From a virus: a DNA stretch of 64,000 nucleotides. The DNA is taken from IMG/VR virus record IMGVR_UViG_3300046492_000199; one strand, 5' to 3'. Below are positions 40,896 to 56,560 of the stretch, piece by piece. The notes below the pieces were generated by a model. That model made no database searches, was not told the origin of the DNA, and saw only the letters and a list, made by a program, of their open reading frames with translations. A program made the translations under genes and the position numbers. Each line of letters starts with the position of its first letter. The stretch's first letter is position 1.

Positions 40896-41285
40896 GTGTA
40901 TAATATTGTCTTTTATTCCTCCGAAACTGGTAACACTCTTTCATTCATTAAGAAATTAGGTATGGAAGAAAACGCATTCCAGATCAAGACTAGAATGCCA
41001 AATTTAGTAGAAATTTCAAGTCCTTACATTTTATTTATCCCGACCTATGCAGCAAATGACGGACGAGGGGCTATCCCAAAATCAATAGTAAAATTTCTAA
41101 ATAATCAAAATAACAGAACACACCTCAAAGGTATTGTGGCTTCCGGTAATAAAAACTTCGGGAGCAATTTTTGTCTCGCGGGCGATCTGATCTCGAATAA
41201 ATGTGATGTGCCAGTCTTATACAGGTATGAGCTACGCGGCACGCAACACGACGTAACAAATGTAATGGATATTTTCAATGCTTGA
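40896..41285 (+). CDS. nrdI: Class Ib RNR flavodoxin NrdI
   Basis: [33 protein letters not shown]; GTG start after RBS aaggaggt. Confidence 0.93.
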
Positions 41286-43392
41286 TTATCACTCTCTTAA
41301 CGCACTACTGGCAATTCCCACTCATGACGGAAAAGTAAATTTCGACGCAGACAAAGAAGCAGCACGTCAGTATTTTTTGAATCATATAAATCAGAATACC
41401 GTTTTCTTCCACTCTCTGGAAGAGAAGATCGCATACCTCATCGAGAATGAATATTACGAGCAGGACGTTTTTGATCTCTACAAATTTGAAGATATTAAAA
41501 ACCTATTCAAGACTATCTATGACGTAAAGTTTCGCTTCCCCTCATTCATGGGCGCTTTTAAATTTTATACCCAATACGCGATGAAGACGTTCGATGGCGA
41601 GCGTTATATCGAACGCTATGAAGATCGCGTCTGCATGACAGCGCTCTACCTTGGCCGTGGTGATTTAGCTCTGGCCCATGACATAGCTTCCGCCATTGTC
41701 AAGGGCGAGTATCAACCCGCTACGCCAACCTTCCTTAATTCTGGTAAGAAGCAGCGTGGCGAACTTGTTTCGTGTTTCCTTCTCCGTGTCGAAGATAATA
41801 TGGAAAGCATTTCACGCGCCATCAACTCTTCACTTCAGCTTTCTAAGCGTGGCGGTGGTGTTGCCCTCCTCCTCACAAATCTTCGTGAAGCTGGTGCGCC
41901 GATCAAGAAAATTGAGAATCAGTCTTCCGGCGTTGTGCCTGTGATGAAAATTTTAGAAGATTCATTCTCCTACGCAAATCAGCTTGGGGCTCGACAAGGC
42001 GCTGGCGCGGTTTACCTAAACGTTCACCACCCCGACATTTTGGAATTTCTTGACACGAAGCGCGAGAATGCTGATGAGAAGATTCGTATCAAGACACTTT
42101 CCCTCGGGCTAGTCGTACCAGATATTACGTTTGAACTGGCGAAGAAGAATGAAGACATGTTCCTGTTTTCGCCTTATGATGTTGAGCGCGTCTATGGCAA
42201 GCCAATGTCTGAAGTCTCTATCACAGAGAATTATTACGACATGGTAGCGAATACTGAGATTCGTAAGAAGTCAATCTCGGCTCGTGAACTGTTTCAAATC
42301 ATTGCTAAGATTCAGTTTGAATCTGGCTATCCATATCTGATGTTTGAAGATACTGTCAATAAGTTAAATCCGATTGACGGCGTTATCAACATGTCTAATC
42401 TTTGCTCAGAAATCCTACAGGTAAACACTCCTTCTGTTTACGAAGACGATCTCGGATATAAGGTTATTGGTAAAGACATTTCGTGTAACCTTGGCTCGCT
42501 TAACATTTACAACGCGATGAAGTCAGATGATCTTGGTAGGCTCGTTAGAACTTCTATCCTTGCCTTAAACACTGTATCGGAAATGTCATCCCTAGACAGC
42601 GTGCCTTCGATACGCGAAGGGAATGCTAAGAGCCACGCCATCGGCTTGGGGCAAATGAATCTTCATGGCTATCTCGCGAGTGAAAAGATTCATTACGGTT
42701 CAGAAGAATCTGTTGACTTTACGAATATTTACTTTTATACAGTTTTATATCACGCGCTGCGTGCGTCTAATGAACTGGCGAAACTTCGTGGTAAATCATT
42801 CGACGGCTTCGAAAAGAGTGCTTATGCCGATGGTTCATTCTTTGATAAATACATTAATCAAAAATGGGAACCTGCGACAGAACGCGTCAAAGAACTTTTC
42901 GGCGGCAAGTTTATCCCGACACAGGGTGATTGGGTCGATCTGGCTCAAGCCATCCTTATTGATGGATTGTATAATCAAAATCTTCAGGCCGTTCCGCCTA
43001 CAGGCTCGATCTCGTACATCAATAACGCCACGTCTTCAATTCATCCTATTGTTGAAAAGATCGAAGCTCGTAAGGAAGGTAAAATTGGACGCGTCTACTA
43101 TCCCGCGCCTCATCTCACAAACGACAATGCGGAATATTTTGCAGATGCTTACGAAATCGGTCCAGAAAAGATTATTGATATCTATGCCGCCGCTACTCAG
43201 CATGTGGATCAAGGCTTGTCGCTGACATTGTTCTTCCCTGACACAGCGACGACTAAAGATATCAACAAGGCGCAAATCTATGCGTGGAAGAAAGGTATCA
43301 AGACAATTTATTATATCAGGATTCGCAAAAAGGCTTTAGAAGCAAAAACAATCGAAGTAACTGAAGACTCTTGCGAAAGCTGTGTACTATGA
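41278..43392 (+). CDS. nrdE: Class Ib ribonucleotide reductase alpha subunit
   Basis: QPATPTF, VSCFL, SNLCSEI, CNLGSLN, PPTGSIS, C-terminal CESC. Confidence 0.97.
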
Positions 43393-44336
43393 ATTTCTCT
43401 GGCGCTATTAATTGGAATCAATTAGAAGATAACACGGATTTGGAAGTCTGGAACAGAATGACTTCTAGCTTTTGGCTCCCCGAAAAAATCGCGATATCCA
43501 ATGATATTCCATCGTGGACCACGATGAGTGAAATAGAACAAGAGACAACGGTGAAAGTCTTTACCGGTCTCACCTATCTTGACCACTTACAAAGCTCAGC
43601 CGGTGCGCCTTCTCTCATGGTAGATGCTGTGACGCAGCACGAAGAAGCTAATCTAGCTTTCATTGGTGCGATGGAAGCAATTCATGCCCGATCTTATTCT
43701 TCAGTGTTCGCTACACTGTGTAGCTCCTCTGAAATCGCAAAAACGTTCGAATGGGCGAAGAATAATAAGCACCTTCAACAGAAATTTGAAATAGTAAATA
43801 AGTATTATAGCGGTACTGATCCTCTTATGAAGAAAGCAGCTTCAGTATTTCTAGAAAGTTTTATGTTTTATTCCGGATTCTACTTGCCGCTTAAATTATC
43901 GGCAAGAAAGAAACTCACTAATACTGCTGATATTATTAAATTAATCATTGCAGACGAAGCGGTACATGGATATTACATTGGATATAAATTCCAAGTAGCG
44001 GCGCGTAAACTTTCTCAGGCAGAGCGAGACGAGTTGGAGCAAAAAGTTAAAATCCTACTTAACTCGCTTTACGCGGTAGAAACGGCATATGCTTATGAAA
44101 TTTATAAAGATATAGGCTGGTACGAAGAAGTAATTCCATTCCTAAATTACAACGCAAACAAAGCTCTGATGAATTTGGGCTATGACGAAATGTTTGATTT
44201 CAGTGAGACTCAAGCCGATCCTTCCGTCATTGCTGCACTGACTTCAGACGATAATCACGACTTTTTCTCCGGCGCTGGCTCAAATTACGTCATGGGAAAA
44301 GCAGTAGATACAGACGACTCAGATTGGGATTTTTAA
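43389..44336 (+). CDS. nrdF: Class Ib ribonucleotide reductase beta subunit
   Basis: [38 protein letters not shown]. Confidence 0.96.
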
Positions 44337-44588: not shown

Positions 44589-44620
44589 AAAGAAACCCCG
44601 CTGAGAAGCGGGGTTTTTTA
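44588..44620. terminator. Bidirectional intrinsic terminator between the convergent arms
   Basis: aaaagaaaccccgct-gaga-agcggggtttttta. Confidence 0.9.
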
Positions 44621-44872
44621 TTATCGAAATCCGTATGTAGAACTTATTCCGTATCGGCCCTCAATTGCTTTGTTCAAAGCCGTAGCCCCTCTAGCAATAT
44701 CCTTGGCCACTTCGCTTCTCAACGTATCAAGAAGATTTTGGATATCCACGGTCTTGACAGTCTCAAATTTTAAAATACTCAGGACCGTATCTGATCCAAG
44801 TTTCCCAAACTCTTCCGCCGTGATATCTAGTGTGACATGTTCGGACGTGATCAGCATTATTTCTGACCCCAT
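44621..44872 (-). CDS. 83-aa protein homologous to the tape-measure C-terminus
   Basis: VAKDIARGATALNKAIEGRYG vs TMP VAKDISKGGTSLNKAIEGRYG; start overlaps the o-spanin end. Confidence 0.75.
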   Translation of the reverse strand: MGSEIMLITSEHVTLDITAEEFGKLGSDTVLSILKFETVKTVDIQNLLDTLRSEVAKDIARGATALNKAIEGRYGISSTYGFR

Positions 44873-45162
44873 TCTTCTTTGAGCTTCAACGCGTTTTCGT
44901 TCTGCTTATCGATCAGGCCAATAATTTCTTTGAGCTTCAATTTGCAATCAAGGCGAGCCGAATTCAATTTAATAATAAATTCGCCTACTTCACGCTGCGT
45001 GTAAATTCCTGTAGGCCTCTTGGGAAGGCCGGAACAGGTGCGCAACGCGGCAGGAATTTCCACGGTATAAATCAGGGGCTCGTATTTAGTTGTCGCCGCG
45101 CAACCCGCTAATGCTACGCTCCAAGAGAGGAGACACACTCCCATTATCGCTTTCAGGTTCAT
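44857..45162 (-). CDS. o-spanin (Rz1-like lipoprotein)
   Basis: Lipobox LAGC; IP..L..C...P; C-terminal second Cys; overlaps the i-spanin. Confidence 0.8.
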   Translation of the reverse strand: MNLKAIMGVCLLSWSVALAGCAATTKYEPLIYTVEIPAALRTCSGLPKRPTGIYTQREVGEFIIKLNSARLDCKLKLKEIIGLIDKQNENALKLKEEWGQK

Positions 45163-45421
45163 TTCTAAGTTTCTCCAAATCTTCTTCTAATTGTTTATTT
45201 GCTTCGTTCTGCTGTGTCAGTAGATTCTCAAGAGATTGCTGCGCCGCTTTAGAATTATCAACTTCTAATGCTTTGGATTTAAATGCCGCCTTGGCATTAT
45301 CTCTTTCGATACTGACTTGCAGAACTTCATTTTTTAAATGTTGGTTCGTGGCATAGAGCGAACTTAGCGCTCCAAATGCCAAGAGACCAACGATCAGATA
45401 TACACCAATTTGATTGAACAT
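45086..45421 (-). CDS. i-spanin (Rz-like)
   Basis: N-terminal TM followed by coiled coil; follows the endolysin. Confidence 0.8.
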   Translation of the reverse strand: MFNQIGVYLIVGLLAFGALSSLYATNQHLKNEVLQVSIERDNAKAAFKSKALEVDNSKAAQQSLENLLTQQNEANKQLEEDLEKLRNEPESDNGSVSPLLERSISGLRGDN

Positions 45422-46497
45422 TATTTATCCTCAAACGCTTTTTTATAGTTTGTGTAGGCCTTGATGATTTTATCTTGGGCCAGAATGCCTAGGACAGCTA
45501 GAACGATAAGGCTCAAGAAGATGGCAACAAGAATTCGCCAGTCCTGAAACCAAGCGAGTCCGCCAGCGAACGGGATAGATGAGAACCAATAACCGAAGCG
45601 GCTGAAGAAACCGGCTTGAATAGCAGGAGGTTGACCTAAAACGCCACTTGGATCTTGACCTTGATCTTCGACAACTTCAGCCAACTTCTGTTTCGTCAGT
45701 GGGCCAACTTCGCCATCAACGGTTAGGCCGTTAGCTTCTTGGAATTGCATCACGACTTCTTGAGTGTGACCACCAAAATCTCCATCAGAGTCCACATCAT
45801 ATCCAGCGGTTTGTAGCGCGCTCTGCACCGCCTCAACATCAGCGCCCTTCGTGCCAATATCGACAGTTGGATTGCTATACGAAACAGGCGTGAACTTAGA
45901 GCTATTAAGTTTGGCCTGCCACTTGCGATCCGCGTTTAGAAGCTTGACGTGATAGTTGTTAGCTTTATATTGCTTGCCGTTATAACCAGCGGCAAAAACT
46001 TCCCACTTGCCACTTTTCAGAGCTTCGAAGATACCCTTGGCCTGAGCAAATTTAATAATACCCTCAAGCTGATTAGCTTCGCTCTGAGCCATCCACTGAA
46101 CCATGGATAGCGCGGTTGGGAAGCCTAACATGGCATGATTGAAGCCCATGCACTGACCCATGCCAAACGAAGTTGACATAGCTGCGATCTCGTCTCCCGC
46201 GATAGAGGCGCAAAGATCGATCCTGTCATAGGATGTTTTGGGGTAATTGCGTACCCAATCCTTATAAGCAATGCCAGCCTTGACGAGTTTATCCCTTACC
46301 GCGCCCTTGGTGTAGCGGTAGGCGATATGAGGCTCGTACAGCGCGATTAGGCGGTTCTGGCTGTCGTAACCGCTACCGCGTGCTTCTACCTCTGCTACGG
46401 CTCTGAGGCGCGATTCTGCGATGTTGTACTTATTGGCTAGAGCAGTGAAATCCGCAGCGCTAATTTTTCTCCCTGTGCCGTAATAAAATCTTGTCAT
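45421..46497 (-). CDS. Endolysin: DUF3380 N-acetylmuramidase + PG-binding domain + C-terminal TM
   Basis: AVAEVEARG, LYEPH, STSFGMGQCMGFNH, FAAGYNG..Y..N.Y; DGDFG..T...V..FQ...GL.VDG.VGP.T. Confidence 0.9.
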   Translation of the reverse strand: MTRFYYGTGRKISAADFTALANKYNIAESRLRAVAEVEARGSGYDSQNRLIALYEPHIAYRYTKGAVRDKLVKAGIAYKDWVRNYPKTSYDRIDLCASIAGDEIAAMSTSFGMGQCMGFNHAMLGFPTALSMVQWMAQSEANQLEGIIKFAQAKGIFEALKSGKWEVFAAGYNGKQYKANNYHVKLLNADRKWQAKLNSSKFTPVSYSNPTVDIGTKGADVEAVQSALQTAGYDVDSDGDFGGHTQEVVMQFQEANGLTVDGEVGPLTKQKLAEVVEDQGQDPSGVLGQPPAIQAGFFSRFGYWFSSIPFAGGLAWFQDWRILVAIFLSLIVLAVLGILAQDKIIKAYTNYKKAFEDK

Positions 46498-49400
46498 TAT
46501 GTTGCCGTCCTACTAAATTGTGTTGAATAGAGATAACCGTTACCACCGGCATAACTATCGATTGTACTAACTCTGTAATAATATGTCGTCCCTGAAGCCA
46601 GACCAGTAATTGAAACACCTAGGGCGTTTGCATCAAATACTCTGTTTGCCGGGGCAGGAGTAAACCCGTTTACCGTGCTCATGAATACTTGATATTTAAT
46701 AATGTCTGATCCAGATACCGCGCTCCACGTGATATCAATTCTTCCCGCACTTGGGCTTGTTGAACTGATTGTCGTAGGTGCAGCTGGTGCATTATCAGCA
46801 ACGTTCAATGTTGTATCCGGCCCGACTAGGCTTGAGTTTTCAGCATTGACTTTCACGGAGAAAGTTCTCCAAGGCCCGCCATCTGCAATTAACTGTGAAT
46901 TACTATAGAAATAGTTATTCGAAGTTGTCGTGGTTTGCCTTACCAATGTGCCAATATTATTATAAATTTTAACTCTATAAAGCGTGGCGCTCGTAACTGT
47001 GTTCCATTGGATCGTAGCTTCTACGCCGGTATATGGCGAGGTGAGGGATAATCCAGAAACTGCACCCAATGTGAGACCAAGAATTTGATCCGACACGGCG
47101 GCAGATTCGCCATAATCATTAATAGCATAAACATTGACTTGAACCCTAGACCAAGGTCCGCCAGCAGCGGTAATCTCAGAAGAGGTCCATGATAAGAACG
47201 GCGACGATACAGTCTTAGAAAGTTTGATAGTATCAAAATTCCCGCTACCTACAACGCTTTCAATATAAACATCACCTCTGTAAGACGTGGCACGTGGCGC
47301 GGCGTTAAACGTGGCCTGAAGTGTACCAGCATTAACGTCAGCTGTTGCGTCCAAGTTACTTACTATACCCGGAGATAGAGAAGGAGTACCAAAGCTTTGG
47401 GGATTTGGATCAATATATTTCCAAGGCCCGATGATGGTATTAAAAGCCGCAACCCTTACATATAAATCACCAGCACTTGCGACGATCTGGAAATTCAGGT
47501 TGGAACCATTGTAAACGGTTTGCCAGCTAATTCCGTCATAAGAAATTTGCAGAATATAACTCTGCGCCCCAATAGCACCGGACCAGATAGCATTAATATC
47601 TACTGGATCACTGCCGCTCAATGGGTCTTGAGATATATGAATGCTCGTTACTTCAGGACCGGCAGGCACAACGCCGGGGCCATAATATGTAACACCCGGA
47701 GGAGGAGTACCGGTATCGGCGCTATATACTCTAGGATCATCAATTGCCAGAGTTAGATCGACTTTATCGATACCCCTCATTGTTGAGCCGACAACTATAA
47801 ATCTCTTTTTGTACTCCGTGGTAGAACCTAGGACAAAAGCCGTGTCTTTGGCTTCGCCGTCATAAGATAGAACTTCCTCAATTGTAATGTCTTGAGAAAT
47901 TTCCAAAGCATCTAGCGAGCCACTTTCTAATTGAACCTCATTCGTGAAACCAGTATATGTAACCTCTATCGGGCCAAATTCTTTACCATCACGGCGTCTC
48001 AATGAAATATAATTTGTTTCAGATTGACTCAATGTGACGTTTCTATCAAAAACAAGAATTCTATCAGATGGTAAATAATCCACGACCAACCCGTTCTGAG
48101 ACCAACCCGGAACGTCATGGCTAACAATAACTGGATCGCCTTTGAGCAGCAAACGTCCATCAGCTTCGGTCGAAACAGAAGCCATAATTCTGCGATAAGA
48201 ATTAGACGCGGCGTGATACATTCCTTCGCGCCAAGCCTGAGACCTATCTGTGATTCCGAAAAGTTGAATTCTTGCAGGTTTTGTCGAAGTCGATCCCGGC
48301 AGAGTACATTGAATTTCAGAATCTTCCCAAGTAGTCGAATCTTTAAATTCTACAATAACATCGTCAGCGCTATCTTCTCCTTTAGCAATGTGCGTAGTTT
48401 TAAAAGTGTTCTTCAAAATGGACTGAGGCGTAATAACAGTTCTGGCTAGAGAGCGTTGTTGATCCCTGACAAATGTCACCATGCCAGCGACAAGAATTGG
48501 CTGCGTTCTAACAACGGCTAGAACTGAATTTAGTGCATCCCACAAAGTTCTGGCCGTGTCAAAGACGCCGTTGAAACCATCATTTCTGGAGTCATAAATC
48601 TGAGCCAGTTCACTAAGTTTGGCAATGTCGATTCGACTATCTGGCAGGCCAGCGCCGTAAACAGTGTTTCTTAATATGTCAGCCGCGATCCATGCCGGAT
48701 TGCTAGTATCAGCTGGTGGTTGCCAAGCCCCATTATCCCAATAAGGAATTCTCCCCCTTTGGATGGTATTGATTTGAGTCGAACTCTGACTACTTAACTG
48801 ATTAGAAGCCCTGATCTTTACCGCTAACAGTGTAACATCTGGATAGATGTTATCGTCGGGGATGAAGGCTCTCAGACTTTGCCAAACAATATCATTACCG
48901 TAACGAGAATCTGTTTGTTTCGTGCTAGTTCTTCTAACTCTAACTTCGTATCTTCCGAGACTTACATAGATATTACGTGTGTAACGACGCTGTGTAGAAT
49001 CGGCAAGCGTAAACGTCTCGTTAAGTACGGTGATGTAGCTTCCGATAGGATCGCCTAGATTATCAATCTGTCTAACTTGAACTGTGTAGCTCACAGAAGC
49101 ATTGCTCAAACCACCAGCATCGTTGGCGTAGTAAAGCCCGCGAGGTAGGACAAGGTCAACTTGGAGGTGATCCGTGGCTTGATTGTTAGGGTTAGCCACA
49201 AATGGGCCGGTCCAAACAGAAGTGTCAATTAGTTCTTGGCCGCTTACTTCAGCCGACGTGTTGACGTTGGATGGAAATAGTGTAATAGTTCCACCGGGAG
49301 GAATGACTTCTATCTGAACATTGGAAAACGAGCCGCTGTAGCCAGAAGTGGTATCCCACAATTCTGTTTCGCCAATGTTAATTTTCATTAGATCATAATA

Positions 49401-49985
49401 ACCAACACCGAGGCAAAACAATTGGTATAGATATTGATCGTTATTTTCAAAGCTTTGAAATGGCTGTGACGCAAAGTCTGGATATAGAATATGCGTCCCA
49501 TAAAGTCTTGGGATAGGATTTAAGAGTCTGGCGCTATTACCCTGAGCCCCAATATCATAAGTAGGGCTAGCGGCTTGAGCCGATTCTTGCTTAGGGGTTT
49601 TTACTGAAGAGCCTAGGAATGCATTGATTAGAAACGTGCCGCCAAGAACGATTGCGGCAGAAATGAGTGCAAACGCAAATGTACCAGAGGCCGCGAAAAG
49701 CCCAGCGATAGGACCAGCGACAATACCAAGCGCAATGATAGCAACGGTTTTAAGAATATCTTTAAATGTTTCGCCACGAGGGATTACAACGAATTTAATC
49801 TCGTCTTCCTTCATCCCGACTACATTCCCCCAATCCTTTCTAAGGACCGGTACGCCGTTGCGTACACAAATTACCGGTTCTCTTTTATAAGGCGCACCTA
49901 GTTTGTCAGCGATATCGTAATACGTATCACTGCAAACATAGTTATCAATTTTTAAATTAGCAAAAGGTGAATTATATTCAATCAT
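46497..49985 (-). CDS. Tail tip/central fiber protein (lambda J-like) with FN3 repeats
   Basis: GN.ARL..PIP.LYG, YLYQLFCLG.G, TLLAVKIRA, FN3 W..V.G...Y.V patterns. Confidence 0.9.
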   Translation of the reverse strand: MIEYNSPFANLKIDNYVCSDTYYDIADKLGAPYKREPVICVRNGVPVLRKDWGNVVGMKEDEIKFVVIPRGETFKDILKTVAIIALGIVAGPIAGLFAASGTFAFALISAAIVLGGTFLINAFLGSSVKTPKQESAQAASPTYDIGAQGNSARLLNPIPRLYGTHILYPDFASQPFQSFENNDQYLYQLFCLGVGYYDLMKINIGETELWDTTSGYSGSFSNVQIEVIPPGGTITLFPSNVNTSAEVSGQELIDTSVWTGPFVANPNNQATDHLQVDLVLPRGLYYANDAGGLSNASVSYTVQVRQIDNLGDPIGSYITVLNETFTLADSTQRRYTRNIYVSLGRYEVRVRRTSTKQTDSRYGNDIVWQSLRAFIPDDNIYPDVTLLAVKIRASNQLSSQSSTQINTIQRGRIPYWDNGAWQPPADTSNPAWIAADILRNTVYGAGLPDSRIDIAKLSELAQIYDSRNDGFNGVFDTARTLWDALNSVLAVVRTQPILVAGMVTFVRDQQRSLARTVITPQSILKNTFKTTHIAKGEDSADDVIVEFKDSTTWEDSEIQCTLPGSTSTKPARIQLFGITDRSQAWREGMYHAASNSYRRIMASVSTEADGRLLLKGDPVIVSHDVPGWSQNGLVVDYLPSDRILVFDRNVTLSQSETNYISLRRRDGKEFGPIEVTYTGFTNEVQLESGSLDALEISQDITIEEVLSYDGEAKDTAFVLGSTTEYKKRFIVVGSTMRGIDKVDLTLAIDDPRVYSADTGTPPPGVTYYGPGVVPAGPEVTSIHISQDPLSGSDPVDINAIWSGAIGAQSYILQISYDGISWQTVYNGSNLNFQIVASAGDLYVRVAAFNTIIGPWKYIDPNPQSFGTPSLSPGIVSNLDATADVNAGTLQATFNAAPRATSYRGDVYIESVVGSGNFDTIKLSKTVSSPFLSWTSSEITAAGGPWSRVQVNVYAINDYGESAAVSDQILGLTLGAVSGLSLTSPYTGVEATIQWNTVTSATLYRVKIYNNIGTLVRQTTTTSNNYFYSNSQLIADGGPWRTFSVKVNAENSSLVGPDTTLNVADNAPAAPTTISSTSPSAGRIDITWSAVSGSDIIKYQVFMSTVNGFTPAPANRVFDANALGVSITGLASGTTYYYRVSTIDSYAGGNGYLYSTQFSRTAT

Positions 49986-51465: not shown

Positions 51466-54400
51466 TTATCTTCTCTTATTGCCAGCGGCTGGTGAAGAAC
51501 CGTAACGGCCTTCAATAGCTTTATTAAGGCTAGTACCACCCTTGGAAATATCTTTGGCCACACCGTCTTTAATTTGTTCAAGTAGAACATTAACATCCAA
51601 CGAACCATCTGAATTTTGTTTCGTTGAAGTTGAGGCGTTAGCATTAGTTCCGTTATTTATAACATTCAAATTAATTTTGGGCTGAACAAAAACAGCTGAA
51701 GACGAAGCTTGAACCGCACCGCTGGCTTGGACGCCTAATGAACCATCAGCTGCTCTTTTAAGAGGCATAATCGCTTCAGGTCCAGCCTCACCCATTAAGC
51801 CAGTTCTATTTCCTGACATTCCAAATGTGGTAGGAGAATTTACTATACCATTGTTTGAACCATTTGTCAAGCCCCCGTTAGCAAAAGCAATGAGTTTTCC
51901 TGAATTAAATGCTCCACCATTGGCAAAAGTCATTGGAGTTGAAATAGCCGACATGCCGCCGCCAAGATCAAATCCACCTAATGAACTTGAACCGCCGCCG
52001 AACATACCACCAAAAGCACCAGACAATGCTTTGATGATCGGCTGAATCACTGTGTAACGAATAACGATTCTAGCAATATCACCTAAGATACTCTGAGCCA
52101 AAGATTTGAAATCCATTTTACCTGTTGTTACCCAACTCGTCAAAGCATCCTCAAGACCGTTGAAAGCATTGGAAACAGCGCCAGCAACATCCGTAGTGAA
52201 ATCCTCAGATGTTTTAGTTAGATCGGTCAAGCCTTTATTGATACCCGAAATCCATGGAGAACTACCACCTGAAGCAGCTTCAGAATATTGCTTCTTCAGG
52301 CGAGTCAATAGCTCAGTGTATTCCTGAAGATTACCAGTGTTGGCAAATTCTTGATCAAGGAGTTGCTTCTTCTGAGTAAACTCATCAAGTGCCGTTGTTG
52401 ACGGCATCAATTCGTTTCTTAGTTTCTCAAAATCAGAAGTGAAGGCGGAAGAACCCGGAAGAACGCCGCCGTACTGATCCCTAAGTTCAGCAAGGCCTTT
52501 GTTATACTCAGCCTGTGTTATTTGACCCTTCTTGAGTTGTTTCTCAAGAGCTTCCTGTGCTTTATTATACTTTATAGTATCTTTCGCAGCACCGTCAAGA
52601 TACGAAGAAGCCGCACCTCCGGTATGGTCTACCTTTGGTTTACCGCCATTAGCAATATCTTTTTGTGTCTTGATTAAGTCCGTTTGCATCGCGGTCAATG
52701 CGGCAACTTGATCCGGCGACTTGCTTTGAACCTTTTGAAGAGCAGCTATATCATCTTTTAATTGAGAAACTTTACGAGAGGCTGAAGTTGCTCCTTCAGC
52801 GTATTTTTCAATACGCTTGTTGAAATCATCAGCTGCGTCGTGTCGTTTCGTAGCGGTTTCTACAGCCTTGACAGAAGTGCCAATTTGGTCATAAGTCTTT
52901 TTTAATTGTTGACCAGCTTGAGCAATGGCTTGGATTGCACCAGCAGGATCATTCTTTGCAGATTCATTGATTGTCTTTACCATATTTTGATAAGACTCAT
53001 CAGCCTTCTCGTACTGTTGCGAAAATTGGGCCGCAGCCTTGGATCGATTCAGTTCTGCGATAGCTTGATTCGCTTTACTAGCCGCGCTGGCCACTGCTTC
53101 AGCCATGCCACCAGCTGCTGACGCAACACTGTTCATCACAGCAACTGCGTTAGCCGATGACATATGATTCATTACACCTTGAATTAGTTCAAGTTTCTGA
53201 GCCGCATTGAGAGCTTCACCTTGCGCCGACGCAAGAACGTTTTGCAGTTCGATAAAACCTCTAGCCAATTCGGCAGTGTTACCGTCTTCAAATTTCGAAC
53301 TTGCGATTTCCATGACAAACTGATTATATGATTTGCCGGTCTCGTCAAGATATTGTTTAATATTCTGAAGTTTAGTGGCTAATTGATCATACTCTTGTGT
53401 GTTTTGTCCGCCAGTCAAGGATTGGTCGGTTGATCTGCGCAGAAGCTCAAATTGTCCGCGAGCCTCTTCCACTCGCTGAGCCACGTCTATTAGCTCAGTC
53501 TTTAGTTTTTGCTGCTCCGTGACGATCTGAGACGCAGAAAGAGCCTCTACAGATTCTCTATATCGGTCCATAGCTTCTTTAGAAAACCTAATTACTTCCG
53601 TGAATTCTTTCGCGCTCGAACTAGATGCATACCAAGACGCAGCTAGAATGCCTAGGCCAATGATTAGAGCACCTACTGGACCAGAAGCAAGACCAGCAAT
53701 TGCGCCGCCAGCGCGTCCAAAAAGTGATACAGCAATGGAAGCTTCTGACGCGGTTGTAGCAACGCCGGTAATGGCATATTTTATTAAATTTAGATTAGTT
53801 ACCCAAGCTGTTCCGCTAGCAATGCTCCCTAGAACCATTGAGGCGAAACTTTGTAAAAATCTAGCAATATTAAGGGCGAGCAATACCTTTAGACCGTTAA
53901 CTACAGTGTCAACGTGCTTGATCAGGAACGAGAATGCCGAACCTAATGCTTCAATAGCCTTACCAGAACGTTCGCCAAATTTATCAGCAAACTCCAAAAA
54001 TTCAGGTGATGAGATTGAATCTTTTACTTGTTCAATTGCCTTAGCTAGAGATGCCATAGCACCACCTTGACCAACGGCGACTTCTAGGTCATAAACCGCG
54101 TTCTGCAATAGATTAAACTGCGCCGTTGAATTCTTCAACGCGCTCTGAAGTGATCCACCATAAGTTCTTTGAATTTCAGCTGCGAATTTAGGCAAGGCAT
54201 CAGAAGAAAGAATTTCACCCTTCTTAAGCATATCTTGTAGTTCAGCAGTTCCTACACCTAATGCACGAGCCATTAAGTTAACGGAACCCGGTAATTGCTC
54301 GCCCAACTGTCTACGAAGTTCTTCGGAAGACACAGTTCCTTTGCTCATCATCTGTTCAAGAGCAAGCAACGCAAGTTTAGTTCTATCACTTGAACGGTGC

Positions 54401-55758
54401 AATACTGTCATGGCAGTAATTGTTGCTTCGAAGATAGTTCTGGTTTGCTCAGTGGAAACGCCTGCCAATTTTGAGGAGATAGAAAATGAGCCAAAAGATT
54501 CTTGAATATCTTCTACACGCTGACCAAGGCGATTAGCCATGTCTTCGGTGTAGCGCATTTCTTCGCCGGTCTTGCTTAAGCTTCCCTCATTTACGGCCAG
54601 CAGTGTGCTTTTGAAAGCGTTGAAATTCGTGTTAGCGTCATAAATTGACTTGGATAGTGTACCCAGCGTGATAGAGCCAATCAGGGTACGAAATACCGAT
54701 GCGGCTTGGAACGTACCGCTGAAAGCATTCTCTAAGCCACGAAGGTTCGTTGTCATGCCAGCGGCTTGACTTGAGAACTTTCCGCCGCCAATGTTGCTTA
54801 AGTTGGTGCGGAAATTATTTAGGAATTTATTAGCCATACCCGCTGCCATACCGATCTTTTCGATATAAGCTGCGATCTGAGGGGCGTTGGTTGGTACTTT
54901 TAAATTGCCCAACATCTTGACGAAAGATTCGACATTCTTAATCTGAGCCGGTGTGGGGCCTTTGAAATTAGAGAAGGCCTGAGTAATGGCTGAGATAGAG
55001 CTTGTGCCACTGATCGGCTTAAAAGTCGATAGGGCTGAGAAAAGATCACGCAGGTTCTTAACGCTGGTAGAGCTAGGAGCTTTCATACCAGCTACAGCGC
55101 TACTTAAATTAATAATTCCTGTGATCAGCGAGCCATTGATGGAAGCTTTCGCGCCGCTGTTGTTCAGCGCGCTAAAGAAAGCCTTCATGTTGGAAACAGC
55201 TTTTTCAGAAGGGGCGCGGAACCCGCCTAGTGCATCACCTAATTTAGTAATGCCTGTGAAACTACCTGAGATGCGAAGCAGTGGAGCTACTTCTGAAAGA
55301 GAAGTGCCAAATACTTTTAAAGCTTCAATCTTTGAAGCACTTGGGACTTTGAATCCAGCCATGGCAGCGCTGATCTTGTTTACAGATTCAGCAAAGTTCC
55401 CACTAACATTAAAACTGTTTAGCAGGGCAGGAATAGATGTGGCAAATGTGTTGATGTTTTTAAGCGCGGCAGGGCTAGGCGCTTTTAGATTTTTAAAAGC
55501 GTTACCAATGCTGTTAATGCTCTTAACAGCAGCCGGATTGATATTGATGTTGTTGAGTTTGCCTAAGTCTTTAGCGAGCTTAGTAAAGTCGCCGCCAGAG
55601 GCACCGCCCGCCATCAGTTTAGAGAAAGCAGCTTGGGCCTTGGCGTCTAGGTTGTCTAAACCTTTATTAATAGAAGAAATGGCCGAAACAAACTTTTTCG
55701 CCCCCGCTTCGGCGCGAGAGGCGTCAATTTCGAAGCGTAAGGAAAATGTATCGGCCAT
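51466..55758 (-). CDS. Tape measure protein (1430 aa)
   Basis: MMSKGTVSSEELRRQLGEQLPG tape-measure motif; lambda-type LT.WV.TGKMDFKSL; FANGG and GLMGEAGPEAIMPL. Confidence 0.95.
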   Translation of the reverse strand: MADTFSLRFEIDASRAEAGAKKFVSAISSINKGLDNLDAKAQAAFSKLMAGGASGGDFTKLAKDLGKLNNININPAAVKSINSIGNAFKNLKAPSPAALKNINTFATSIPALLNSFNVSGNFAESVNKISAAMAGFKVPSASKIEALKVFGTSLSEVAPLLRISGSFTGITKLGDALGGFRAPSEKAVSNMKAFFSALNNSGAKASINGSLITGIINLSSAVAGMKAPSSTSVKNLRDLFSALSTFKPISGTSSISAITQAFSNFKGPTPAQIKNVESFVKMLGNLKVPTNAPQIAAYIEKIGMAAGMANKFLNNFRTNLSNIGGGKFSSQAAGMTTNLRGLENAFSGTFQAASVFRTLIGSITLGTLSKSIYDANTNFNAFKSTLLAVNEGSLSKTGEEMRYTEDMANRLGQRVEDIQESFGSFSISSKLAGVSTEQTRTIFEATITAMTVLHRSSDRTKLALLALEQMMSKGTVSSEELRRQLGEQLPGSVNLMARALGVGTAELQDMLKKGEILSSDALPKFAAEIQRTYGGSLQSALKNSTAQFNLLQNAVYDLEVAVGQGGAMASLAKAIEQVKDSISSPEFLEFADKFGERSGKAIEALGSAFSFLIKHVDTVVNGLKVLLALNIARFLQSFASMVLGSIASGTAWVTNLNLIKYAITGVATTASEASIAVSLFGRAGGAIAGLASGPVGALIIGLGILAASWYASSSSAKEFTEVIRFSKEAMDRYRESVEALSASQIVTEQQKLKTELIDVAQRVEEARGQFELLRRSTDQSLTGGQNTQEYDQLATKLQNIKQYLDETGKSYNQFVMEIASSKFEDGNTAELARGFIELQNVLASAQGEALNAAQKLELIQGVMNHMSSANAVAVMNSVASAAGGMAEAVASAASKANQAIAELNRSKAAAQFSQQYEKADESYQNMVKTINESAKNDPAGAIQAIAQAGQQLKKTYDQIGTSVKAVETATKRHDAADDFNKRIEKYAEGATSASRKVSQLKDDIAALQKVQSKSPDQVAALTAMQTDLIKTQKDIANGGKPKVDHTGGAASSYLDGAAKDTIKYNKAQEALEKQLKKGQITQAEYNKGLAELRDQYGGVLPGSSAFTSDFEKLRNELMPSTTALDEFTQKKQLLDQEFANTGNLQEYTELLTRLKKQYSEAASGGSSPWISGINKGLTDLTKTSEDFTTDVAGAVSNAFNGLEDALTSWVTTGKMDFKSLAQSILGDIARIVIRYTVIQPIIKALSGAFGGMFGGGSSSLGGFDLGGGMSAISTPMTFANGGAFNSGKLIAFANGGLTNGSNNGIVNSPTTFGMSGNRTGLMGEAGPEAIMPLKRAADGSLGVQASGAVQASSSAVFVQPKINLNVINNGTNANASTSTKQNSDGSLDVNVLLEQIKDGVAKDISKGGTSLNKAIEGRYGSSPAAGNKRR

Positions 55759-56168
55759 TATTTATTCTTCTTTATTTTATTAGCAGCTTCGTCAGCCAAT
55801 CTTTTCTTTTTGTCTTTTTCGTAATAATCTTCTATCCACAGATTATCCAAAAGTTTTACAAAATCGGAAAAGTCTATTCTCTTCCTATAATCATCAATGC
55901 CATATAATTGGCAATAGTGATTTATTTCAGAAAAAGAAATATGCATCGGGCCAGCCATTCCGGCAGGTCTTGATGAAGAAAGAGTTAAAAACCCTTCCCA
56001 CACCCAATACAAATCCTCGAAAAGTTGTGGCCCTTCTTCTTGAACTTCCTGTACTTCTACAGGAAGTCCTTTTTCTTTTCTTACCTTAGCTATCCATTCA
56101 TTATCTTTTTTGGAGATTTTATTATTGACTTTGGATAGTGAATAGTTAAGGTACTCTGTTAGTTTTTT
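55758..56168 (-). CDS. Tail assembly chaperone gpT part (-1 frameshift extension)
   Basis: The -1 frame is open from the slippery site through 55758 (KLTEYLNYSLS...LFEDLYWVWEGF..LSSSR). Confidence 0.8.
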   Translation of the reverse strand, partial: KKLTEYLNYSLSKVNNKISKKDNEWIAKVRKEKGLPVEVQEVQEEGPQLFEDLYWVWEGFLTLSSSRPAGMAGPMHISFSEINHYCQLYGIDDYRKRIDFSDFVKLLDNLWIEDYYEKDKKKRLADEAANKIKKNK

Positions 56169-56560
56169 TCTGCTTCAGCCTTGTTCTGGACCTTGAACGC
56201 GTCATCGTCCGTGACAAGCTTGGCAATTAGGTTGCGGAATTCGCGGTACTTGGTAAGCTGATCTTCAGCGGCCTTGACAGAGAAAGGAAGGACAGTCTCT
56301 TCGTCTTCTTCTGTGAAGCCTTCCCAATCAGCAACAATGGCCTGTGCCATCTGAGCGATCAATAGGCGTTCCTGATCACCCTGTGGAATGCCTTTGCCGG
56401 AACGCTTCATAGCGAGGTAAGGAGCTTCAAGAGCCTCACGGACTTCCTGTGAGCGCTTGCTCTGGAAAGAGCGAAGCTTGATGCGAGCCTTATCGCCAAG
56501 TTCGAACCACTTACCAGTTTCTTCAGATTCAACGTCGGTAGCAAATGTAGAGAATTTCAT
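56159..56560 (-). CDS. Tail assembly chaperone (gpG-like)
   Basis: Between tube and TMP; D...E..G.WF, A.AIVADWEG. Confidence 0.85.
   Translation of the reverse strand: MKFSTFATDVESEETGKWFELGDKARIKLRSFQSKRSQEVREALEAPYLAMKRSGKGIPQGDQERLLIAQMAQAIVADWEGFTEEDEETVLPFSVKAAEDQLTKYREFRNLIAKLVTDDDAFKVQNKAEAEKN
56162..56168 (-). other. Programmed -1 ribosomal frameshift site A AAA AAC
   Basis: GAA AAA AAC TAA at the end of the chaperone gene; X XXY YYZ heptamer. Confidence 0.8.

Follow-up and report, generated by a model that had tools for sequence, protein, structure and literature searches.

A small gene at the end of the late operon of this phage encodes a free-standing relative of the C-terminus of its tape measure protein (TMP). 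Judged by protein alignment and codon divergence, the C-terminal module of the small protein is an old copy of the last ~40 TMP residues. It is joined to a private N-terminal module, and the pattern of substitution among related genomes marks the gene as a working one and not a relic. We tentatively read its product as a late, low-abundance tail-tip binder or assembly factor. In the following, the window is the whole stretch of 64,000 nt that was analysed, and all positions refer to it unless another contig is named.

The small gene and the late operon

According to profile matches, the minus strand of the window holds a lambda-like late operon. The small gene is co-oriented with this operon (TMP, M, L, K, J and the lysis genes) and ends it in the window. 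The features of the region are listed below.

56560 to 55761, minus strand: G/GT-type tail chaperone pair (phrog_313, phrog_8233)
51466 to 55758, minus strand: lambda-type TMP, 1430 aa (PF20155 TMP_3, PF09718 Tape_meas_lam_C)
51457 to 50975, minus strand: distal-tail-like protein
50974 to 50399, minus strand: DUF1833 hub protein
50397 to 49978, minus strand: NlpC/P60 protein
46497 to 49985, minus strand: gpJ-like central tip protein (J), 1162 aa (PF24801, PF13550, phrog_31)
45421 to 46497, minus strand: endolysin, N-acetylmuramidase plus PG_binding_1, with a hydrophobic C-terminal anchor (residues 314-348)
45086 to 45421, minus strand: i-spanin with an N-terminal membrane segment (phrog_739, phrog_4349, phrog_1152; hydropathy)
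44857 to 45162, minus strand: o-spanin, a lipoprotein (PF23793 LysC-like, phrog_456), whose TAA stop overlaps the ATG of the small gene
44621 to 44857, minus strand: small late gene, most likely 78 aa (ORF list, homologue starts, purifying selection)
44593 to 44616: strong bidirectional intrinsic terminator, which closes the late operon and the convergent nrd/glutaredoxin operon

The initial annotation placed the gene at 44621-44872. This frame was retained, and the start was moved downstream. The ATG at 44872 is an alternative start that gives an 83-aa form (ORF 44872 to 44621, minus strand), but all homologues start at the residue matching Met6 of this ORF, and the stop of the o-spanin and the ATG of the small gene overlap as TAATG (44855-44859) in all four genomes compared (the window and the IMG/VR contigs L001, L004 and L005). 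Because of these two features, the likely gene is 44857 to 44621, and its true start is probably the ATG at 44857, leading to a protein of 78 aa. Translation of the small gene is probably coupled to termination of the o-spanin, as had been proposed together with its distance from TMP and its place at the end of the lysis operon. Both of the latter hold: the frame is unbroken, with 6.6 kb between it and the TMP stop, and the gene is the last of the late tail-lysis operon in the window, with the terminator beginning 5 nt after its stop. Equivalent terminators are located directly 3' of the small gene in L001 and L004. A frameshift fusion of the o-spanin and the small ORF was also considered and dropped, since it comes with neither a conserved slippery site nor a conserved upstream open frame.

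The lysis cassette of the window is composed of endolysin, i-spanin, o-spanin and the small gene, and no recognisable separate holin is found in it. An endolysin that is anchored at its C-terminus and has no adjacent holin is unusual. At the other end of the tail genes, in the chaperone pair (55761-56560, minus strand), a 133-aa ORF is followed in another frame by one of 84 aa; each matches tail-assembly-chaperone PHROGs, and this arrangement is consistent with synthesis by programmed frameshift. As for the tail tip, the late operon of the window has no separate gpI gene. Residues 59-179 of J give a weak match to phrog_32 "tail assembly protein" (E 4e-4), and hydropathy shows a hydrophobic stretch at residues 76-128, as in lambda gpI. 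This match and the hydropathy suggest that the N-terminal ~180 residues of J (49450-49985, minus strand) may be gpI-like, in other words that J could be an I-J fusion.

Homology to the tape measure C-terminus, modules and selection

The small protein is divided into two modules, one of which corresponds to a segment of TMP.

44756 to 44857, minus strand: private N-terminal module, residues 1-34 of the 78-aa form (alignments, AF2)
44624 to 44752, minus strand: TMP-derived C-terminal module (BLASTP E 1e-12, AF2, conservation)
51469 to 51603, minus strand: TMP residues 1386-1430, the segment copied in the small protein (BLASTP)

We ran BLASTP between the 83-aa ORF and the 1430-aa TMP, and it turned out that residues 41-81 of the ORF align without gaps to TMP residues 1386-1426, with 22 of 41 positions identical and 31 of 41 positive (E 1e-12). 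A free-standing, intact paralogue of the TMP end had been described in the initial annotation with 21 identities in 36 residues; the homology is confirmed, and the BLASTP extent (22/41) replaces that count. The string LNKAIEGRYG is common to the small protein and TMP, and its codons differ at many synonymous positions, also in agreement with the earlier description. Over a 30-codon core, 58 of 90 bases are identical between the two genes and pS is 0.67. Such abundant synonymous differences indicate that the duplication is old and has been maintained as protein sequence, rather than being a repeat that arose recently in the DNA; on this evidence, the last ~40 TMP residues were copied long ago to give the C-terminal module. 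A recent gene conversion between TMP and the small gene in the window was rejected by the same pS of 0.67. The paralogy recurs in three related contigs, and the profile built from the small proteins also finds TMP ends in a library of 1.84 billion proteins. The small protein is not a tape measure protein proper, having 78 aa and lying 6.6 kb downstream, after the lysis genes. TMP of the window itself matches the solved TMP chains 25vf, 9l9p_B (T1) and 8iyk_H (lambda), almost to its end.

Two further cases were observed outside the window. For L005, gene conversion is weakly suggested by a core pS of 0.45 and one identical run of 26 nt, but pS reaches 0.68 over 48 codons. Both the small protein and TMP of L005 carry NKAF and the others carry NKAI, which appears to be a single case of co-variation or of local gene conversion. 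P0014 is a more distant TMP of 1446 aa with the same terminal motif (…DIARGDSAINKSIDGRYN…), so the docking motif would reach beyond the clade. P0014 also has an apparent VanY/M15-type peptidase motif upstream of its Gly-rich region.

Every member of the family consists of the N-terminal module followed by a TMP-derived tail of varying length (~40 to ~92 residues). The N-terminal module has the motif I.R/T...v.IDIT.EEF..G...V..L, is acidic (pI 4-5) and is predicted to form a beta-hairpin and two short helices (AF2, pLDDT ~75-85). An HMM of this module, run against all six-frame ORFs of the window and the related loci, found no second copy. The possibility that it is a DNA-binding domain of ribbon-helix-helix or AbrB-like type was rejected on the basis of its acidic pI of 4-5 and the lack of a fold match. 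In the C-terminal module, which is basic overall (pI ~9.5), a short strand precedes helix 1, and a G-x-T turn leads to helix 2 (LNKAIEGRYG) and then to a basic end; the helices are predicted at residues 44-60 and 64-74 in the numbering of the 83-aa ORF (AF2, pLDDT ~74-80). The distal motif is located 8-13 residues from the C-terminus in all members. In the longest form, that of L005 (171 aa), the match to the TMP of the same genome covers ~92 terminal residues with the GPEA motif among them (43% identity, E 1e-26), and the 119-aa form retains an Asn/Ser-rich loop, while the forms of 77-91 aa retain only the short strand, helix 1, the G-x-T turn, helix 2 and the basic end. Internal TMP-like material is variably deleted across these forms (77 to 171 aa), and the terminal ~40 residues are never lost. 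The private N-terminal module with its conservation, the longer TMP-like variants and the downstream start codon are points that go beyond the initial annotation.

The small protein is soluble. It has no membrane segment, signal peptide or lipobox, and its maximum Kyte-Doolittle score over 19 residues is 0.82, compared with 1.9-3.2 for the spanins and the endolysin anchor. For the predicted structure, Foldseek found no match in PDB at E<=0.001. VIA-align of the whole model returned Z scores of at most 3.2, among which the T1 TMP end (9l9p_B) at Z 2.7 is not meaningful alone, and the N-terminal module folded alone gave one match at Z 2.1. The top ESM Atlas score for the small protein was an uninformative 0.80, and a PDB profile search with the small-protein alignment yielded a designed coiled coil at E 2 only.

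Among the four genomes, pS is saturated (0.6-0.8) in all genes of the block, and pN of the small gene is 0.23-0.44. Given the saturated pS, the intact frame and pN below pS, the small gene is under purifying selection by these measures. Decay in relatives, which had been named as the sign of a duplication relic, was not found: the gene is intact in every genome seen, and this comparison of dN/dS type characterises it as a working gene, not a relic. The remaining chance that it is a non-functional duplication relic is very slight. Its small size, its rarity and the lack of a family match would fit such an origin, but the frame has stayed open despite saturated synonymous divergence, with pN lower than pS, and conservation extends to the N-terminal module, the overlap at the start codon and the terminator, by which a relic is effectively refuted.

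The small gene is the fastest-evolving gene of the block. Its product is 51-60% identical in amino acids among the window, L001 and L004, and the neighbouring genes are mostly 80-94% identical, with the i-spanin down to 73%. Within the 30-residue core, TMPs of these three genomes share 27-28 of 30 residues with each other and the small proteins 15-19 of 30; small proteins compared with TMPs share 18-19 of 30. This variation is distributed unevenly. The mean top-residue frequency of helix 1 is 0.55 in the small proteins vs 0.78 in TMPs, while that of the turn and helix 2 is 0.85 vs 0.78, and the motif VA.DI..G.T.LNKA.E.RYG is common to all small proteins and TMPs. As these frequencies indicate, selection acts on DI..G.T.LNKA.E.RYG and the basic end, not on the preceding coiled-coil helix. 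A poorly kept helix 1 beside a well kept turn and helix 2 points to a shared partner for the distal motif, not to co-oligomerisation with TMP.

Possible roles of the small protein

The copied segment corresponds to a part of TMP whose place in related particles is known. In the lumen of the lambda tip, residues 818-842 of gpH (818-849 in Ur-lambda) are arranged as a bundle of three helices that is seated on the gpI tripod (PMC10721106, PMC12617516). Only residues 921-956 of the 957-aa T1 TMP (gp38) are resolved, at the same place on the gp34 tripod (PMC11945409), and the F-type pyocin PyoF5 has the same arrangement of the TMP end (PMC13455828). In the tips of lambda, T1 and F-pyocin, TMP is resolved over its last 25-36 residues only (PMC10721106, PMC12617516, PMC11945409, PMC13455828). 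The last ~30-36 residues of these TMPs sit on the gpI tripod within the lumen, in agreement with the background cited in the initial annotation, in which the TMP C-terminus plugs the tail-tip complex. Proteolysis of lambda gpH gives gpH* and a C-terminal fragment of ~14 kDa, gpHC; six are made and three are seen docked, and the role of gpHC is stated as unknown (PMC12617516). By family membership and position, the last ~40 residues of TMP in the window would occupy the equivalent tip site.

Compared with the TMP ends of lambda (gpHC), T1 and PyoF5, the small protein is homologous, predicted to be helical, C-terminal in its TMP-like part and basic at the end, and it resembles gpHC in being a small free polypeptide. 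It differs from gpHC in having its own gene 6.6 kb from TMP, whereas gpHC is freed by proteolysis. Unlike a lambda-type TMP end, it is fused to the private N-terminal module, its helix 1 has diverged, and its short forms lack the Gly-rich and GPEA regions. The chaperones gpG/gpGT of lambda, which act on TMP during assembly, are likewise small and late, but this phage has its own G/GT pair (56560 to 55761) and the small protein matches neither. Exclusion proteins of Cor/Llp type are also encoded at the end of siphophage tail operons; these are exported outer-membrane lipoproteins that block the receptor, whereas the small protein has no signal peptide or lipobox and resembles TMP.

Our favoured, still tentative reading is that the small protein is a late, low-abundance tail-tip binder or assembly factor, and we infer its partner and role as follows. 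Owing to its operon position and the coupling, it would be expressed late and at a low level together with the tail and lysis proteins, with termination-reinitiation at the o-spanin stop yielding small amounts of it. Its distal motif and basic C-terminus would bind the same tip surface as the TMP end. This surface probably belongs to the hub lumen and to the N-terminal, gpI-like part of J, whose first ~180 residues are the presumed docking partner of the TMP end. The private acidic module may add a second activity, such as oligomerisation or capping, and the protein would work at the tail tip as an assembly factor, a placeholder or a minor component of the tip lumen. The initial annotation had offered four functions (an alternative tip plug, an assembly regulator, a decoy for defences sensing TMP or tail parts, and a superinfection blocker), among which a tip binder or assembly regulator fits best. 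Several points count against a tip binder. If it competed freely with the TMP end for docking, the protein should be toxic to tail assembly of its own phage, barring a difference in level, timing or site; the fast evolution of the gene also fits an arms-race function. Besides, the fixed place behind the spanins, not beside the tip genes, is left unaccounted for, and the gpI-like assignment of the J N-terminus comes from the weak PHROG match (E 4e-4) and hydropathy.

A counter-defence role is the main alternative, although we regard it as unlikely. The protein would be a decoy that shows the TMP end late in infection and soaks up a host or prophage factor recognising TMP, which would block tail assembly like Tab or trigger abortive infection on sensing TMP. 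Published systems make this conceivable: Tab blocks tail assembly by targeting TMP (PMC10884400), Tai does so by targeting the J C-terminus (PMC11364771), and phages carry late-expressed antidotes against them, anti-Tab and Ati (PMC10884400, PMC11364771). The small gene also evolves much faster than the TMP end (15-19/30 vs 27-28/30), as expected in conflict. When compared by description, the small protein is similar to anti-Tab (JBD26 gp30) and Ati (phi80), which are linked to protecting tail assembly, in that all are small, encoded in the late operon and translationally coupled to a neighbouring late gene. What anti-Tab and Ati reportedly bind, however, is the defence protein, and they are not described as mimics of a tail part; the small gene also has no cognate defence gene nearby, its neighbours being the spanins and the convergent nrd operon. 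A decoy would moreover be expected to follow the TMP epitope, but helix 1 of the small proteins is now very different from that of TMP, which hardly varies, and a simple decoy needs no conserved private N-terminal module. PADLOC gave no match, and to our knowledge no defence is known that senses the distal motif of the small protein and TMP. Somewhat less plausible again is that the copied helices pair with the C-terminal helices of TMP itself in a mixed bundle, where they might chaperone the sticky end before docking, cap undocked TMP ends or control a possible C-terminal cleavage of TMP. The segment is a self-associating coiled-coil part in lambda and T1 (PMC10721106, PMC11945409), lambda yields free gpHC, with neither its role nor the 6:3 stoichiometry explained so far (the tube holds six gpH, and three gpHC are docked; PMC12617516), and the 171-aa variant of L005 resembles gpHC with a head piece. 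The difficulty is that the mixed coiled coil would have to be formed by helix 1, where the small proteins vary most, whereas TMP is almost invariant there.

The setting behind the spanins raises the question of a lysis accessory, that is, a soluble regulator of the spanin/endolysin step that might link lysis timing to tail completion. The gene lies directly behind the o-spanin and is coupled to it in four of four genomes, and lysis control is unusual here because of the missing recognisable holin and the C-terminally anchored endolysin. We nevertheless consider this role improbable: without membrane segment, signal peptide or lipobox the protein has no way to the spanin domains in the periplasm, no lysis family of PHROG or Pfam matches it, and the conserved TMP docking motif would be left unexplained. 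In L005, a late gene of 647 aa follows, so that the small gene is not always the last of the operon. Interference between phages, in which the protein jams the tail tips or the entry of related co-infecting or superinfecting phages, is very improbable. Fast evolution would fit such a conflict, but the product of a late gene without export signal cannot meet incoming tails, self-poisoning would have to be avoided since the phage's own TMP has the motif, and there is no sign of lysogeny in the window. The earlier proposal of a superinfection blocker is disfavoured likewise, as signal peptide, lipobox and membrane segment are all missing from the protein, and its gene is a late one in a large phage that carries replication genes of its own.

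Compared with these alternatives, the tail-tip binder or assembly factor remains our preferred reading. A broader and doubtful reading is that separate copies of TMP tip helices represent a recurrent, undescribed class of phage "tail-part mimics", here in the form of a late TMP-end decoy or a gpHC equivalent. As a decoy, the copy would shield the TMP end from immunity that blocks tail assembly or senses TMP; as a gpHC equivalent, it would fill or prime the gpI docking site and resolve the six-to-three mismatch of TMP. If the decoy were true, target mimicry would join the known antidotes against defences that block tail assembly. In siphophage tail assembly and DNA ejection, the part played by the last TMP helices and by lambda gpHC is still an open question (PMC12617516). 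This phage lineage has kept the TMP end helices as an independent gene over long divergence, and the isolated minimal conserved determinant, DI..G.T.LNKA.E.RYG with the basic end, provides a handle for finding the binding partner.

Distribution and genomic context of the family

The family is rare, with about eight sequence clusters of the small protein among billions of proteins. A word-indexed search found two close homologues. Among 1.84 billion cluster representatives, the profile search retrieved TMP ends and also small proteins of 77, 78, 90, 119 and 171 aa, and the set of 5.8 billion clusters added one further member of 91 aa. A 1157-aa repeat protein (P0013) was discarded as a spurious low-complexity match. 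For annotated families, Pfam, PHROG, NCBIfam and PADLOC gave no credible match to the small protein or its variants, with noise at E 0.05-0.19, far below the curated cut-offs. A partial literature search returned no paper on such a gene.

In 50,697 phage records, tblastn found no match for the 83-aa protein and one weak TMP match only for the 171-aa variant, and megablast of the 8-kb region against phages gave no match. No relative was detected in the GTDB genome contigs scanned, hence no prophage copy, nor in the JGI metagenome contigs scanned with a degenerate motif. Taken over the tblastn of phage records and the scan of GTDB contigs, there is no copy in a cultured phage, prophage or bacterial genome. 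All members are from metagenome assemblies, where the long contigs that carry them measure 129-188 kb, and all carriers of the gene are uncultured.

The IMG/VR contigs L001, L004 and L005 are syntenic with the window, and the small gene is located directly behind the o-spanin in all three. The post-spanin position was counted in the window, L001, L004 and L005. L005 belongs to a complete genome of 184,940 bp with terminal repeats. In this genome, a Thr/Ser-rich late ORF of 647 aa follows the small gene on the same strand (L009:594-2537, plus strand, the same as G001:C1:99293-101236) and sits between it and the convergent nrd genes. The ORF had no match in Pfam or PHROG, and the window has no equivalent at that position. 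The same genome also carries a NUMOD3 homing-endonuclease gene (L009:4504-5415, minus strand) between the genes for the large and small subunits of ribonucleotide reductase, while the two subunit genes of the window are contiguous (41278-43392 and 43371-44336).
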